Part shown: positions 39,681 to 44,461 of the stretch, one piece after another
Layout: every line of letters begins with the position of its first letter
How positions within the stretch are numbered: the first letter of the stretch is position 1
From: a virus
Lineage: Duplodnaviria; Caudoviricetes
Length of the DNA: 64,000 nucleotides
Virus record (IMG/VR): IMGVR_UViG_3300031998_000031
Coordinates: 46,940-110,939 of that record
Reading direction: 5' to 3' (one strand)
Position numbers and translations under genes: made by a program
Notes under the pieces: model-generated
What the model was told of the DNA's origin: nothing
Database searches by the model: none
The model's input: the letters and a program-made list of their open reading frames with translations, nothing else

Positions 39681-40412
39681 ATGATGGATGATATGAAGAA
39701 GTGTGCGAACTGCCAGTATCACGAGTTCGAAGACATTACTAAGGGCTGGATTTGCGTCAATCAATCAAGTTCGCACTGCGCCGATTGGACTGAAGATTCT
39801 CAATCATGCCCATACTGGGAGCAGCGAAAACCGCCGAAGACTTGCGGTGATTGTCGCTATAACGACGTCGAGAATGACTTCCGGTGCCAGCTGATGGCAC
39901 AGTTTAGAGATGATTGTTACATAGACTTGGCTGTGCTGGATAACGTAAGGGATTCTGAATGTCCGATACTATGGAAGCGGGATAACTATAACGATGCCAT
40001 ATTTAATGGCGTTTGCCCTTGCTGCGGAAGCAAGCTTGTATTGAAAGATAGCTTTGTGTGTACATCTTGCGGGCAGGCTTTCAAAAATCCTTTTCGCCGT
40101 GTGATAGCAATCGATTTTGACGGGTGCCTTTGCGAAAATGATTGGCCTGATGTCGGGGACCCGCACTGGTCGGTCATACATGATGCGCTGGAGGCTAAGG
40201 CTTCGGGCGCGAAGCTGATATTGTGGACATGTAGAGATGGCGAAGACCTTAAGGTGGCCATTGAGGCCTGCAAGTCGTGGGGGCTTGAGTTTGATGCGGT
40301 CAACGACAATTTGCCTGAGCTAAAGAAACTTTGGGAGAATAATCCTCGAAAAATCGCAGCCAAAGAGTATTGGGACGATAGGGCGGTATTGAAAAATGGG
40401 AAGCAAGAGTAA
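39681..40412 (+). CDS. HAD-superfamily hydrolase with N-terminal Cys-rich domains
   Basis: 'IAIDFDGCL', 'LILWTCR', 'FDAVNDN', 'RKI...YWDDRA'. Confidence 0.75.
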   Translation: MMDDMKKCANCQYHEFEDITKGWICVNQSSSHCADWTEDSQSCPYWEQRKPPKTCGDCRYNDVENDFRCQLMAQFRDDCYIDLAVLDNVRDSECPILWKRDNYNDAIFNGVCPCCGSKLVLKDSFVCTSCGQAFKNPFRRVIAIDFDGCLCENDWPDVGDPHWSVIHDALEAKASGAKLILWTCRDGEDLKVAIEACKSWGLEFDAVNDNLPELKKLWENNPRKIAAKEYWDDRAVLKNGKQE

Positions 40413-40675
40413 GAAAAAGCCTCAGGTATTGACAAGGGCTAAAGAGGAGGCCATAAAGCATGATGCGATAAGTCACATTATGATTGTCTTCGTCGCAACG
40501 TGCGTCGAGGAGTTCGGCTGGCAGGATGCCGATATAAAGCTTTTTGTTGAGCGTTTTAAGAGGTATTCAAATGCCGTCGATGAAAAGCTGATAACGCTAA
40601 GGCATGTTCAAGAGCTGGTGAATGAGGAAGCGGGAACAGACCTGCATTTTTACTGAAAAATCTAAACCTAAACAC

Positions 40676-40704
40676 TTGACATTATACTAATGTAATGTTA
40701 TATT
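40676..40704 (+). promoter_or_regulatory. Repeated early promoter copy 5, upstream of the RNA island
   Basis: TTGACA-N17-TATATT with extended TG. Confidence 0.8.
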
Positions 40705-41291
40705 ATTTATGTAAATGGTTACATGGGAAGAGCAATGAGGAGAATGGGATGACAAAGTACGTAACGCGACTCGGACGGTTTATCGATGATTTGAGAGATG
40801 CAATCTATCGAAAGGGCGTGCCGAGCTATGTGGACATCAACTTAAGGTTTTATATTCTTAAGGACGCGGACGGAAGACCGTATTACGAGGTCACAAAAGA
40901 CCTTGGGAGCGAATACGGGCTAAGGACCGTTGACTGTGGATTCAACACAGGCACATGCCTGCTTGTCGGAGATAAGATAGGCGGGAACGAGTGCAAGAGC
41001 GTCGAGTTCTTCGCGGGTGAACATCCTGATGTATCGCACGGCAAGATGCTTATCCTTGTTTCGGACATTGCTGACGAAGAGCTTGTTGGAGACGAATCCA
41101 TAATCATGGTCGAGTCAGAAGAAGCAGATTGGTACGAAAAACTAATGGGATAATTGGGGCGCTATAAGTGCCTTGGTTATAAGGGGACGCTTGCCGAGGC
41201 GTGGACGAAGTCGGACGAATACCACATATTACTCCTAAAATATAAATGCATAAGCTAACATGTCCATGTTGGAAACGACATCCCCTTTTAT

Positions 41292-41366
41292 AGCGGTTTA
41301 GCCAAGCGGCAAGGCAACCGGCTTTGGTCCGGTCATTCGTTGGTTCGAATCCAACAACCGCCGCCA
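41292..41366 (+). tRNA. tRNA-Gln(UUG)
   Basis: ACCGG-CTTTGGT-CCGGT anticodon arm, GTTGG-TTCGAAT-CCAAC T arm, unpaired 1:72, encoded CCA. Confidence 0.9.
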
Positions 41367-41504
41367 CGTCGCATTATCGACGATAGACATATTGTTGTCA
41401 GGTAGACGGCTCTACCTTCTTGCCGTAAAGCCTTTGAAAATAAGGCTGCGAAAGGGTTCAACTCCCAATCGTGTTATGGACGGAAACGGCAGTCCTTTCT
41501 GAAG

Positions 41505-42749
41505 ATGAAGGAAGATTTGAAAATGAGTGAGATGATAATTGAGGGAAGATTTAATACAGCTAAAGTCTTTACGGACGTGATAGACGACGAAAGCATCCGG
41601 CAGATTAAGGAGCTTTTGAATCAGGAATTCTTTTCTGACTCAAAGATAAGGCTGATGCCGGACGTTCACGCCGGTGCAGGGTGTACGATAGGGACCACTA
41701 TGACCATAAAGGATAAGATAGTGGCTAACTTGGTGGGTGTGGACATATCGTGCGGAATGCGAGTAGCGAAGCTGAAAGAGACACATTTAGAGCTTCAGCA
41801 GCTCGATAAGGTCATCCATGAGAATGTCCCGTCGGGATTCTGCAAAAGGGGCAGCGTCCATCGGTTTGCAGATATGGTCGACCTATCAAAGCTCCGCTGC
41901 GCTGATAAGGTCAACATAGATAATGCTCGTGTCAGCCTTGGTACCCTTGGCGGAGGGAATCACTTCATTGAGGCGAATAGGGCTGATGATGGGAGTCTAT
42001 ACATCGTTATACATTCAGGAAGCAGGCACCTTGGTCTTGAGGTCGCGAACTGGTATCAGGAAGAAGCATTTAGACAGCTAAGCGGGGGCGAAAAACGCAA
42101 TCTTAAAGAGATGCGAGATGAGGTCATTGCAAAGCTGAGGGCTGAGGGCCGCGAGAAGGAAATCGGAGCAGCTCTCAAAGCTCTGCCCGCGAGCGGCAAA
42201 TCTGATATTCCTAAGGACTTGGCCTATTGCAGCGGCAATCTGTTTGATGACTACATCCACGACATGATAATCATTCAGCAGTTTGCGGACTTGAATCGCA
42301 GGGCCATGATGGATGAGATAGTAAGGGGCATGCACCTGCACGTAGAGGACGAGTTCACGACCGTCCATAACTACATCGACACTGATGCGATGATACTGAG
42401 AAAAGGCGCAGTCTCTGCAAAGGATGGGGAAGTGTTGATAATCCCGATAAATATGAGGGACGGAAGCCTCATCTGCTGTGGCAAGGGTAATCCTGACTGG
42501 AATTATTCAGCGCCTCATGGTGCCGGGAGACTTATGAGCCGCAAAAAGGCGAAGGAGTCTTTGACTGTTTCGCAGTTTAAAAAGGAGATGGAGGGTATAT
42601 ACAGTACATCTATCAATCATAGTACGTTAGACGAAGCTCCGATGGCATATAAATCAATTGATGACATCGTGAGTAACATTGGAGACACGGTAGACGTCCT
42701 TGGAGTAATTAAGCCGATATATAATTTCAAGGCCGGTGAAGATTACTAA
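41505..42749 (+). CDS. rtcB: RtcB RNA 3'-phosphate/5'-OH ligase
   Basis: 'MPDVHAG', 'VGVDISCG', 'GTLGGGNHFIE', 'IHSGSR', 'HNY', 'RKGA', 'PHGAGR', 'DEAPMAYK'. Confidence 0.95.
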   Translation: MKEDLKMSEMIIEGRFNTAKVFTDVIDDESIRQIKELLNQEFFSDSKIRLMPDVHAGAGCTIGTTMTIKDKIVANLVGVDISCGMRVAKLKETHLELQQLDKVIHENVPSGFCKRGSVHRFADMVDLSKLRCADKVNIDNARVSLGTLGGGNHFIEANRADDGSLYIVIHSGSRHLGLEVANWYQEEAFRQLSGGEKRNLKEMRDEVIAKLRAEGREKEIGAALKALPASGKSDIPKDLAYCSGNLFDDYIHDMIIIQQFADLNRRAMMDEIVRGMHLHVEDEFTTVHNYIDTDAMILRKGAVSAKDGEVLIIPINMRDGSLICCGKGNPDWNYSAPHGAGRLMSRKKAKESLTVSQFKKEMEGIYSTSINHSTLDEAPMAYKSIDDIVSNIGDTVDVLGVIKPIYNFKAGEDY

Positions 42750-42763
42750 GGTGGCTATACTGT

Positions 42764-42838
42764 GGGCGTGTAGCTCAGCGGTAGAGCACCCGGCTCATAA
42801 CCGGTTGGTCGCGGGTTCGAATCCCGAAGCGCCCACCA
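42764..42838 (+). tRNA. tRNA with CAU anticodon (Ile2-like or Met)
   Basis: CCGG-CTCATAA-CCGG arm, T loop TTCGAAT, ACCA end; mismatches at the acceptor/T-stem junction. Confidence 0.8.
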
Positions 42839-42937
42839 AGTAAGTGAGACTTAAATGCTGTAAATGATGATGCGGGGCGTCCGCGCCAGCCGCGTCTATG
42901 GGTGACGATGCTAACCGGAAGTACAGCAGCCCAGAAT

Positions 42938-43038
42938 ACTGCGGTGGCGGAATAGGTAGACGAAGGTAAGATGGTCGCTCCATCGCTGGGCGCATATTCC
43001 TGTATGCGCCATGTGAGGTGCAAATCCTCACCCGCAGT
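42938..43038 (+). ncRNA. tRNA-like scaffold RNA E1
   Basis: ACTGCGG/CCGCAGT helix, GCGGAATAGGTAGACG D arm, GTGAGG-TGCAAAT-CCTCAC T arm, two-hairpin insert, no CCA. Confidence 0.75.
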
Positions 43039-43042
43039 TTAT

Positions 43043-43119
43043 GCTTCGGTAGCGCAACAGGCAGAGGCAACCGCCTCAAAAGCGGAAGAGTGCTGGTTCA
43101 AGTCCAGCACCCTGCGCCA
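43043..43119 (+). pseudogene. Chimeric tRNA-Leu(CAA) with unpaired acceptor stem
   Basis: 5' part identical to 43334 copy; 3' strand ACCCTGC-GCCA mostly fails to pair with GCTTCGG. Confidence 0.7.
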
Positions 43120-43123
43120 ACAT

Positions 43124-43206
43124 GGGAGAGTGCGCTTAATTGGTGATAGCAGCGGGCTGTAAACCCGTGACGTAGAAACGCTGGAGGTTCGAGTCCTGCT
43201 TGCATT
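43124..43206 (+). pseudogene. tRNA-Tyr(GUA)-like copy 1 lacking acceptor 3' strand and CCA
   Basis: GCGGG-CTGTAAA-CCCGT arm, variable arm, T loop TTCGAGT, then TTGCATT not complementary to GGGAGAG. Confidence 0.7.
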
Positions 43207-43217
43207 ACTTAGTAAAT

Positions 43218-43330
43218 AACTGCGGTGACGGAATAGGTAGACGTAGGAGTAAGGGTAACCGAGGGATGATAAAACCCTGTATACACAAACGATAGACCCT
43301 CATACAAGGTGCAAATCCTTGTCCGCAGTT
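43218..43330 (+). ncRNA. tRNA-like scaffold RNA E2
   Basis: AACTGCGG/CCGCAGTT, D stem ACG/CGT (covaried), ACAAGG-TGCAAAT-CCTTGT. Confidence 0.75.
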
Positions 43331-43333
43331 CAT

Positions 43334-43410
43334 GCTTCGGTAGCGCAACAGGCAGAGGCAACCGCCTCAAAAGCGGAAGAGTGTGGGTTCGAATCCCACC
43401 CGAAGCACCA
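43334..43410 (+). tRNA. tRNA-Leu(CAA) with short variable loop
   Basis: GCTTCGG/CCGAAGC, CCGC-CTCAAAA-GCGG, GTGGG-TTCGAAT-CCCAC, A73-CCA. Confidence 0.8.
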
Positions 43411-43523
43411 ACGGGGTTGCAGAGCAAATGTACGTCCGACCCAGTGCGCCCAGCTTGTTAAGCTGGATACGCAGGCCAATAGGATGTGATGTGTGGTTAG
43501 CGGTGAATCCTTAAACCGCCCGT

Positions 43524-43599
43524 GCTGGGATAGCTCAGTCGGCAGAGCATCTGCCTCGTAAGCAGGAGGTCAAGGGTTCAAACCCCTTTCCCAGCTCCA
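43524..43599 (+). tRNA. tRNA-Thr(CGU)
   Basis: GCTGGGA/TCCCAGC, CTGC-CTCGTAA-GCAG, TCCA end. Confidence 0.9.
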
Positions 43600-43601
43600 T
43601 A

Positions 43602-43740
43602 TGATACCGTGGCGGAATATGTAGACGCATTCACGAGGCGACGTAAGACGGTAAGAGGTGCTGCCCTACCTATGGACGCATAGGTCGTGTCAACCGATGA
43701 GTAGCTGAGCTATGCAGGGTGAAAATCCCTGCCGGTATCA
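43602..43740 (+). ncRNA. tRNA-like scaffold RNA E3
   Basis: TGATACCG/CGGTATCA, GCGGAATATGTAGACGC, GCAGGG-TGAAAAT-CCCTGC. Confidence 0.75.
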
Positions 43741-43746
43741 AGATTT

Positions 43747-43837
43747 GCGGAATTAAGCCTAACTGGTAAGGCAGCGGTTTGCTAAACCGTGAGTAGGGTG
43801 AAAGCCCGTGCAGGTTCAAGTCCTGCATTCCGCGCCA
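43747..43837 (+). tRNA. tRNA-Ser(GCU)
   Basis: GCGGAAT/ATTCCGC, GCGGT-TTGCTAA-ACCGT, long variable arm, GCCA end. Confidence 0.9.
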
Positions 43838-43841
43838 ACAT

Positions 43842-43924
43842 GGGAGAGTGCGCTTAATTGGTGATAGCAGCGGACTGTAAATCCGTGACATTGAAACGTT
43901 GGTGGTTCGAGTCCTGCTTGCATT
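43842..43924 (+). pseudogene. tRNA-Tyr(GUA)-like copy 2 lacking acceptor 3' strand and CCA
   Basis: GCGGA-CTGTAAA-TCCGT arm; same non-pairing 3' tail as copy 1. Confidence 0.7.
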
Positions 43925-43933
43925 ACTTAGTAA

Positions 43934-44118
43934 ATAACTGCGGTGGCGGAATAGGTAGACGCTATGAAGAATACAGGTAGACAGGTCCTTCGGTTCGAAT
44001 CCGGCGCGGTGCTTGCGAAGTGGCTAATCGCATAGAGGGCGAAGTAGCCCATAGCGCAGTGGTTTTATGTCAGGGAATAGGCTTGTTATGCGTGGTGCAA
44101 ATCCACGTCCGCAGTTAT
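43934..44118 (+). ncRNA. tRNA-like scaffold RNA E4 (longest insert)
   Basis: ATAACTGCGG/CCGCAGTTAT, GCGGAATAGGTAGACGC, GCGTGG-TGCAAAT-CCACGT. Confidence 0.75.
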
Positions 44119-44123
44119 GAAAT

Positions 44124-44213
44124 GCAGAAGTGACCCGAACGGTAAGGGGCCCGTCTCGAAAACGGAGTGTAAGGTGAAAGCCTGTGGGGGTTCGATTCCC
44201 TCCTTCTGCGCCA
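44124..44213 (+). tRNA. tRNA-Ser(CGA)
   Basis: GCAGAAG/CTTCTGC, CCGT-CTCGAAA-ACGG, long variable arm, GCCA end. Confidence 0.9.
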
Positions 44214-44217
44214 ATAT

Positions 44218-44293
44218 GGGACATTAGCTCAGTTGGCAGAGCAATCGGCTGTTAACCGATGGGTCGTAGGTTCGAGTCCTACATGTCCCGCCA
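44218..44293 (+). tRNA. tRNA-Asn(GUU)
   Basis: GGGACAT/ATGTCCC, ATCGG-CTGTTAA-CCGAT, GCCA end. Confidence 0.92.
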
Positions 44294-44461
44294 CGCTGAA
44301 TTAATAGTAGGCGGCCAAAGAAAAAGTGTATGAATAAAAATAGGCCATAATAGGCCAGTTAGGGCAGGAAGGGATGGAGTTTACTTTTTCAACCCGGCTT
44401 AATAGAGCTTTTTCGAGACAAAGTCTCACCTGACCCATTTTGTTATTAGTAGGAGGAAACG

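Follow-up and report, generated by a model that had tools for sequence, protein, structure and literature searches.

A complete virus record of 110,939 bp has direct terminal repeats, and its final 64 kb, referred to here as the window, carry an intact gene for the RNA ligase RtcB embedded in an island of seven tRNA genes, three broken tRNAs and four tRNA-like RNAs that lack an anticodon arm, which we call scaffold RNAs. We read the island, with a probability of roughly 0.6, as a supply-plus-repair (translation-maintenance) kit in which the ligase mRNA would be embedded in the tRNA precursor. Among phages rtcB and the scaffold RNAs are distributed largely independently, the scaffold RNAs probably not being RtcB partners, and the broken tRNAs look like by-products of segmental duplication and unequal recombination, not designed decoys.

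The content proposed for positions 41292-44293 in the initial annotation, an intact RtcB between tRNA-Gln and six more tRNAs, accompanied by three broken tRNAs and four tRNA-like RNAs, was confirmed with ARAGORN, Rfam and Pfam PF01139. ARAGORN and the Rfam family RF00005 agree on seven tRNAs in this region, all on the + strand and scoring 45-72 bits, above the gathering threshold; they are the only tRNAs of the genome and all encode CCA. A small open reading frame (ORF), tRNA-Gln, rtcB and the array follow one another on the + strand, packed within 41292-44293 with spacers of 3-14 nt. The features, including the candidate signals upstream, are as follows.

40630-40645, + strand: terminator-like hairpin, directly before the promoter-like site
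40676-40704, + strand: sigma-70-like promoter match, TTGACA-17-TATATT with TG, a consensus match only (11/12 positions)
40749..41153 (ORF 40695-41153), + strand: small ORF, first gene of the apparent unit, 134 aa from an internal ATG behind GAGGAAAA
41292..41366, + strand: tRNA-Gln(UUG) (ARAGORN; Rfam, 57.2 bits)
41367..41504, + strand: rtcB leader, strongly structured on folding, with T-arm-like GGGTTCAACTCCC
41505..42749, + strand: rtcB, RNA 3'-phosphate/2',3'-cyclic-phosphate to 5'-OH ligase, ORF of 414 aa (PF01139, phrog_1075)
42764..42838, + strand: tRNA-Met(CAU), beginning 14 nt past the rtcB stop; G1-C72, not initiator-like (ARAGORN)
42938..43038, + strand: scaffold RNA E1, anticodon-less, tRNA-Leu-like
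43043..43121, + strand: chimeric pseudo-tRNA (Rfam match 43043-43116, 28.5 bits), 5' two-thirds from tRNA-Leu(CAA), T arm and 3' end tRNA-Ser(GCU)-like
43129..43207, + strand: decayed tRNA-Tyr(GUA)-like copy A (32.9 bits), T stem mismatched, no matching acceptor 3' strand
43219..43329, + strand: scaffold RNA E2, anticodon-less, tRNA-Leu-like
43334..43410, + strand: tRNA-Leu(CAA), no long variable arm (ARAGORN, Rfam)
43524..43599, + strand: tRNA-Thr(CGU) (ARAGORN, Rfam)
43603..43739, + strand: scaffold RNA E3, anticodon-less, tRNA-Leu-like, T loop TGAAAAT
43747..43837, + strand: tRNA-Ser(GCU) (ARAGORN, Rfam)
43847..43925, + strand: decayed tRNA-Tyr(GUA)-like copy B (29.1 bits), T stem mismatched, no matching acceptor strand
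43937..44115, + strand: scaffold RNA E4, anticodon-less, tRNA-Leu-like, insert the largest of the four
44124..44213, + strand: tRNA-Ser(CGA) (ARAGORN, Rfam)
44218..44293, + strand: tRNA-Asn(GUU) (ARAGORN, Rfam)

The ligase matches PF01139 at 8.9e-62 (210 bits, cut-off 27) and phrog_1075, 'tRNA splicing ligase', over nearly its whole length (residues 6-412; 1.7e-137, 460 bits). As it scores under all NCBIfam equivalog cut-offs, including those of PRK09588 and release_rtcB, it is a general RtcB-family member of phage type, not assignable to those subfamilies. Alignment to 1uc2/4dwr places the equivalents of P. horikoshii Asp95 and Cys98 in GVDISCG, of Asn202/His203 in GGGNHF, of His234 in IHSGSR and of the guanylylated His404 in PHGAGR; the equivalent of His329 lies outside the aligned blocks and is probably provided by a VHNY motif that occurs in the translation. 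The catalytic motifs are intact, and the protein is a putative ligase. With GTP and Mn, RtcB joins 3'-phosphate or 2',3'-cyclic-phosphate ends to 5'-OH ends, and metal-independent ribotoxins and many anticodon nucleases leave 2',3'-cyclic-phosphate/5'-OH ends. The likelier start of the gene is the ATG at 41523 behind AAGGAAG, which would give a protein of 408 aa, and its stop lies 14 nt ahead of tRNA-Met. The fold of the leader at 41367-41475 (-32.8 kcal/mol, z -3.4) is far better than that of shuffled controls; the leader has no Rfam match and could be a tRNA remnant or a regulatory element.

The promoter-like site at 40676-40704 is the top sigma-70-like match within 38.5-45.5 kb and the likely start, at ~40.7 kb, of a transcription unit. 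As it stands upstream and no terminator-like site was found on the + strand between it and 45500, the small ORF, tRNA-Gln, rtcB and the array appear to form one rightward transcription unit. The initial annotation had spoken of an early promoter: a consensus promoter match is present, but 'early' cannot be read from sequence. In the reading we favour, host tRNA-processing enzymes (RNase P, RNase Z or E) would cleave the precursor wherever a tRNA or tRNA-shaped element occurs, and this cleavage would free the rtcB mRNA between tRNA-Gln and tRNA-Met. Host ribotoxins or anticodon nucleases would nick tRNAs, leaving 2',3'-cyclic-phosphate/5'-OH, and RtcB would reseal host or phage tRNAs while the phage tRNAs top up or replace the tRNA pool. 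The scaffold RNAs would be ordinary residents of the tRNA island, and the broken tRNAs debris of unequal recombination among its repeated tRNA-shaped units.

Abutment of rtcB and tRNAs, at 14-41 nt, is seen in at least three unrelated lineages, at a chance of ~0.4% per genome by our own rough estimate (tRNA count times 100 nt, divided by the length of the genome). A tRNA-Met ends 14 nt ahead of rtcB in the L021 clade (4 records), and a 15-tRNA array ends 41 nt ahead of it in L081. Since such an arrangement in three unrelated lineages is unlikely to be chance, it suggests co-transcription. Phages G017, G046 and L045 also have tRNAs within 2.5 kb (or less) of rtcB. The closest RtcB found, at 64.6% identity, is that of G017, in which rtcB lies 1.4 kb from an island of scaffold, drum RNA, tRNA-Trp and two tRNA-Thr, and which has only 3/236 ORFs in common with the phage studied here; across G017 and G046 the figure ranges only from 3 to 8 of 236. 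No close DNA relatives came out of a megablast search with 41100-44450 in 50,697 phage records. rtcB has the same tRNA species as neighbours in this phage and in the L021 clade, and a co-transferred tRNA-Gln/tRNA-Met/rtcB module was considered and rejected: the tRNAs are only 71-75% identical, no more than is usual for the same isoacceptor, and so give no evidence for such a transfer.

The classic phage case of tRNA repair is T4, in which Pnkp and Rnl1 oppose PrrC. Phage tRNAs supplemented by RtcB or Rnl ligases have been proposed to act against anticodon-loop cleavage (Iyer et al. 2021, PMC7824862), phage tRNAs have been shown to escape defences aimed at tRNA (PMC10264068, PMC11555353), and for bacterial tRNA arrays beside rtcB both repair and 'sponge' tRNAs for toxin RNases have been proposed (Santamaria-Gomez et al. 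2021, PMC8421152). The concept of tRNAs and RtcB set against tRNA-cutting nucleases is therefore already published, and would fit the present island. Like the phages of PMC7824862, this phage has its own tRNAs and a ligase of the kind that seals the ends left by metal-independent RNases, following the same proposed supply-plus-repair logic, but here the ligase gene, its function predicted from sequence, sits within the array of tRNAs, with tRNA-Met 14 nt away, and encodes the sole repair enzyme, with no Pnkp, Rnl, RlaP or CCA-adding enzyme beside it. The trn operon of Anabaena (PMC8421152) is likewise a compact operon of supernumerary tRNAs linked to a neighbouring, co-regulated rtcB; it is, however, cellular, plasmid-borne and stress-induced via promoter repeats, whereas the present island belongs to a lytic-type phage genome and has rtcB within the array. 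RtcB also stands beside tRNA-mimicking noncoding RNAs in the Salmonella rsr-yrlBA-rtcBA operon and in phage Ro60/Y RNA loci (Chen et al. 2014, PMC4201824; Hughes et al. 2020, PMC7790460). A Ro60/Y RNA/RtcB repair locus was nevertheless rejected for this phage, as TROVE (PF05731) and RtcA are absent from the genome, YrlA has no match in Rfam at E up to 10 and no Rfam match to Y RNA occurs in the island; moreover the scaffold RNAs have the normal strand order of a tRNA and are closed by an acceptor stem, whereas Y RNA has a Ro-binding stem.

The scaffold RNAs E1-E4 share one plan: a 7-bp acceptor stem, TG, a tRNA-Leu-type D arm (GCGGAATAGGTAGACG) and a variable insert private to each, followed by a 6-bp T stem with the loop TGCAAAT (TGAAAAT in E3) and the acceptor 3' strand. 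None of the four has an anticodon arm or an encoded CCA, and they are spaced 3-8 nt from the adjoining tRNAs, as tRNAs are in an array. Our operational definition of this unnamed family asks for the same parts in the same order, with a D arm of GCGGAAYAGGTAGACG and the loop TGCAAAT on the 6-bp T stem, and likewise for the absence of an encoded CCA; E1-E4 fall under it. A scan of IMG/VR for the D-arm motif alone returned at least 119 viral loci, 71 of which also have the T arm with loop TGCAAAT and, behind it, a 7-mer that is the complement of the 7 nt preceding the D arm. Across these 71 the acceptor stems comprise many different covarying sequences; total lengths in the family run from 60 to about 250 nt, and the fetched flanks hold no tRNA at 45/71 loci. 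The scaffold RNAs thus form a very widespread phage family, and are probably ordinary residents of phage tRNA islands.

A known RNA of similar build is RNA1 of phage T5 (AY543070 30501-30644), annotated as 'tRNA-like stable RNA with unknown functions', which also lies in a phage tRNA cluster. Its D arm (GCCGGAATTGGTAGACGG) is of tRNA-Leu type, a T arm is present, the acceptor stem closes the molecule, and the middle is enlarged where a normal anticodon arm would stand. Unlike the scaffold RNAs, RNA1 has a T loop of canonical type, TTCAACT rather than TGCAAAT, on a T stem of 5 bp rather than 6 bp, and no rtcB is annotated within the 3-kb stretch of T5 that was viewed. An element of 149 nt that resembles tRNA-Leu but has a large insert, its T loop being the canonical TTCGAAT (L081 5284-5432), seemingly a scaffold variant of the T5 RNA1 kind, sits in the 15-tRNA array that ends 41 nt ahead of rtcB in that phage. 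The insert of E4 contains, at 43982-44032, a canonical T arm (TCGG-TTCGAAT-CCGG) followed by a D-arm-like hairpin (GCGA-AGTGGCTAA-TCGC), a second, permuted elbow. In G017 a drum RNA (RF02958, 71.5 bits; L203 17540-17645) lies between the scaffold RNA and tRNA-Trp, 2 kb upstream of rtcB.

RtcB is present in 3/71 scaffold-bearing records (96% are without it), these three being of 79-116 kb, and in 2/29 of those at least 90% complete. In the other direction, scaffolds occur in 8/80 records holding the closest RtcB relatives and in 3/21 of those at least 90% complete; these counts refer to the exact pattern, which misses divergent scaffolds, and many of the records are fragments. Seven of the eight belong to one clade of phages of about 51-59 kb whose RtcB is 63% identical to the one described here, and in this clade near-identical genomes occur with or without the scaffold, all of them keeping rtcB. 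The difference is an indel of ~565 nt that comprises about 400 nt of noncoding DNA, the scaffold and, next to it, a tRNA-Trp-like gene whose T arm is aberrant (L006 9238-9803, also in L014, L018, L019 and L025, with a variant in L017), and sister phages without this cassette are 96-100% identical on both flanks. Where both occur, rtcB and scaffold are 0.2 kb apart here, 2.4 kb in G017, about 2 kb in the 63% clade, 7.6 kb in G130 and 57 kb in G046, and we attribute such closeness to both being residents of tRNA islands. The initial annotation had held that independent distribution of the two, together with a lack of protection from tRNases, would speak against its proposal; the first half of this is largely what the records show.

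Three weak tRNA matches (Rfam 28.5-32.9 bits), none of them called by ARAGORN, have mismatches in the acceptor or T stems. In the chimera at 43043 the Leu and Ser parts join inside the T arm and the acceptor strands are unpaired. Two segmental repeats account for these elements. One, of 154 nt (43090-43243 and 43808-43961, 92% identical), comprises a Ser-type tRNA 3' end, a Tyr-like element, copies A and B respectively, and a scaffold 5' end; the other, of 106 nt (43016-43121 and 43307-43412, 86% identical), comprises a scaffold tail and the 5' two-thirds of tRNA-Leu. The repeats, the position of the broken tRNAs at the duplication junctions and their mismatched T and acceptor stems all point to recombination debris. 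Between the Tyr-like copies one change in the anticodon stem is compensatory.

Several results weigh against the supply-plus-repair reading. No tRNA lies within 6 kb of the gene in 16/20 related RtcB clusters (80% identity or more), and in most large phages that have both, rtcB is 15-70 kb from the tRNAs, so RtcB function does not depend on location in a tRNA island. Archease, RtcA, Ro60/TROVE, CCA-adding enzyme and Rnl2-type ligase are all absent from the complete genome, leaving RtcB with no other repair partner. The three tRNAs with C34 anticodons read the single G-ending codons TTG, ACG and TCG, which the phage uses at ordinary relative synonymous codon usage (RSCU, 0.88-1.12), and codon usage, taken from the phage alone, speaks neither for nor against simple codon supply. 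The distances and these C34 tRNAs, together with neighbouring genes for a dUTPase, a helix-turn-helix (HTH) protein and a HAD phosphatase (nucleotide-metabolism and regulator genes), would suit mere co-location in an accessory-gene hot spot, the tRNAs serving codon supply and RtcB general RNA or ribosome repair or another role. We regard this as a possible though unlikely explanation. Against it stands the abutment of rtcB and tRNAs in unrelated lineages, and among records holding tRNAs rtcB lies within 2.5 kb of a tRNA in 6/8 lineages where 1.2 are expected (Poisson-binomial P 1e-4, or 0.02 once three lineages chosen with hindsight are left out); this proximity is tempered by the many RtcB clusters with no tRNA nearby and by the addition of further lineages, which brought the count to roughly 7 near and at least 10 far.

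The remaining readings give the scaffold RNAs a part in the defence or make them RtcB substrates. The layered module of the initial annotation, in which replacement tRNAs, scaffold and broken-tRNA decoys and RtcB repair would evolve together, is improbable as a whole. Its core of tRNAs and ligase finds support in that RtcB is intact, shares the apparent unit of the tRNAs and has precedent in the literature (PMC7824862, PMC10264068, PMC11555353, PMC8421152), and every part lies within 3 kb on one strand; RtcB and scaffolds are usually close where one genome has both, the Tyr-like copies keep their anticodon stem through the compensatory change, and a 'sponge' role for array tRNAs is in print (PMC8421152). 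A functional tie between RtcB and the scaffolds is not supported, nor are the decoy layers: distribution is largely independent (3/71, 8/80), the scaffold cassette comes and goes between phages that are nearly identical and without exception retain rtcB, residence of both in tRNA islands would account for their closeness, and the broken tRNAs sit at duplication junctions as recombination products with mismatched T and acceptor stems. RNase P/Z-type processing leaves 5'-phosphate and 3'-OH ends, which RtcB does not join. With such ends expected, and without the anticodon loop that anticodon nucleases target, the scaffolds are poor candidates for decoys or for RtcB substrates. A narrower cooperation, in which scaffolds act as a sink for nucleases recognising the body or elbow of a tRNA and RtcB reseals the cut molecules, or RtcB ligates or circularises scaffolds after some cleavage, is favoured by the presence of a scaffold within 2.5 kb of rtcB in 3/4 lineages with the closest RtcB (at least 62% identity: this phage, G017/G109 and the 63% clade, with the L021 clade lacking one), and still seems to us very improbable. 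Least probable of all is that RtcB matures phage RNAs by ligating or circularising scaffolds, splicing out their inserts or joining split or broken tRNAs. RtcB is indeed the tRNA-splicing ligase of archaea and animals, and the inserts, in RNAs whose length varies between 60 and about 250 nt, occupy the site expected for a tRNA intron or for an anticodon arm that has been amputated; however, the absence of RtcB from 96% of scaffold-bearing records and the expected RNase P/Z ends tell against the ligation or circularisation suggested earlier, and intron-bearing or split tRNAs spliced by RtcB were rejected, as no splicing endonuclease or ribozyme signal was detected and removal of the insert leaves no tRNA with an anticodon arm.

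Further observations concern the surroundings of rtcB and individual genes. In the 97-kb phages of the L021 clade about 700 nt of noncoding DNA (L021 5204-5911) lie between tRNA-Gln and tRNA-Met, directly upstream of rtcB; the stretch has no Rfam match and could be a large structured RNA. An identical 21-nt noncoding motif, GTGACAATCTAAGCGGGAAGC, occurs within about 3 kb of rtcB at L006 9991-10011, L203 17953-17973 and 11 other loci; it is common to the 63% clade and the unrelated G017 lineage, is absent from the window and may mark another small RNA belonging to such islands. The ORF at 39681-40412 (+ strand) has a Cys-rich N-terminal half and a C-terminal HAD-type phosphatase domain of the BT0820 family (NF046079, 8.7e-21, under the curated cut-off; PDB 2obb, 1.8e-13). 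In the RtcB cluster around L029, which has 31 members, a homologous domain of 47-54% identity follows rtcB at 0.4-1.1 kb downstream (L029 7832-8893 and about 30 sister loci), so that an rtcB/HAD-phosphatase neighbourhood is found in two unrelated lineages. The small ORF at 40695-41153 has no Pfam, PHROG or NCBIfam match, and the ESM Atlas, which holds its sequence from residue 19 onward, returned no usable relative. Bacterial tRNA-Leu normally has a long variable arm; the variable region of the tRNA-Leu(CAA) at 43334-43410 is short, which gives it a class I shape, and position 73 is A, so that its aminoacylation identity is uncertain. An AAA_33 kinase match was rejected as a Pnkp, the sole match being the Zeta-toxin domain of a head-module protein. 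This 459-aa protein, encoded outside the window (G000:C1:30752-32131; L216 753-2132), carries a Zeta-toxin kinase domain (PF06414, 2.2e-22), and its gene comes directly after a Mu F-like gene for head morphogenesis; this toxin-domain protein may be associated with the head and ejected.

The negative result is the more useful outcome: scaffold RNAs do not travel with RtcB, and their function should be looked for elsewhere. If the supply-plus-repair reading is true, the tRNAs and ligase would be a compact answer to bacterial immunity that cuts tRNA, one that could be transferred to test strains, and excision of the rtcB mRNA by host tRNA processing would couple the dose of ligase to the output of tRNA.

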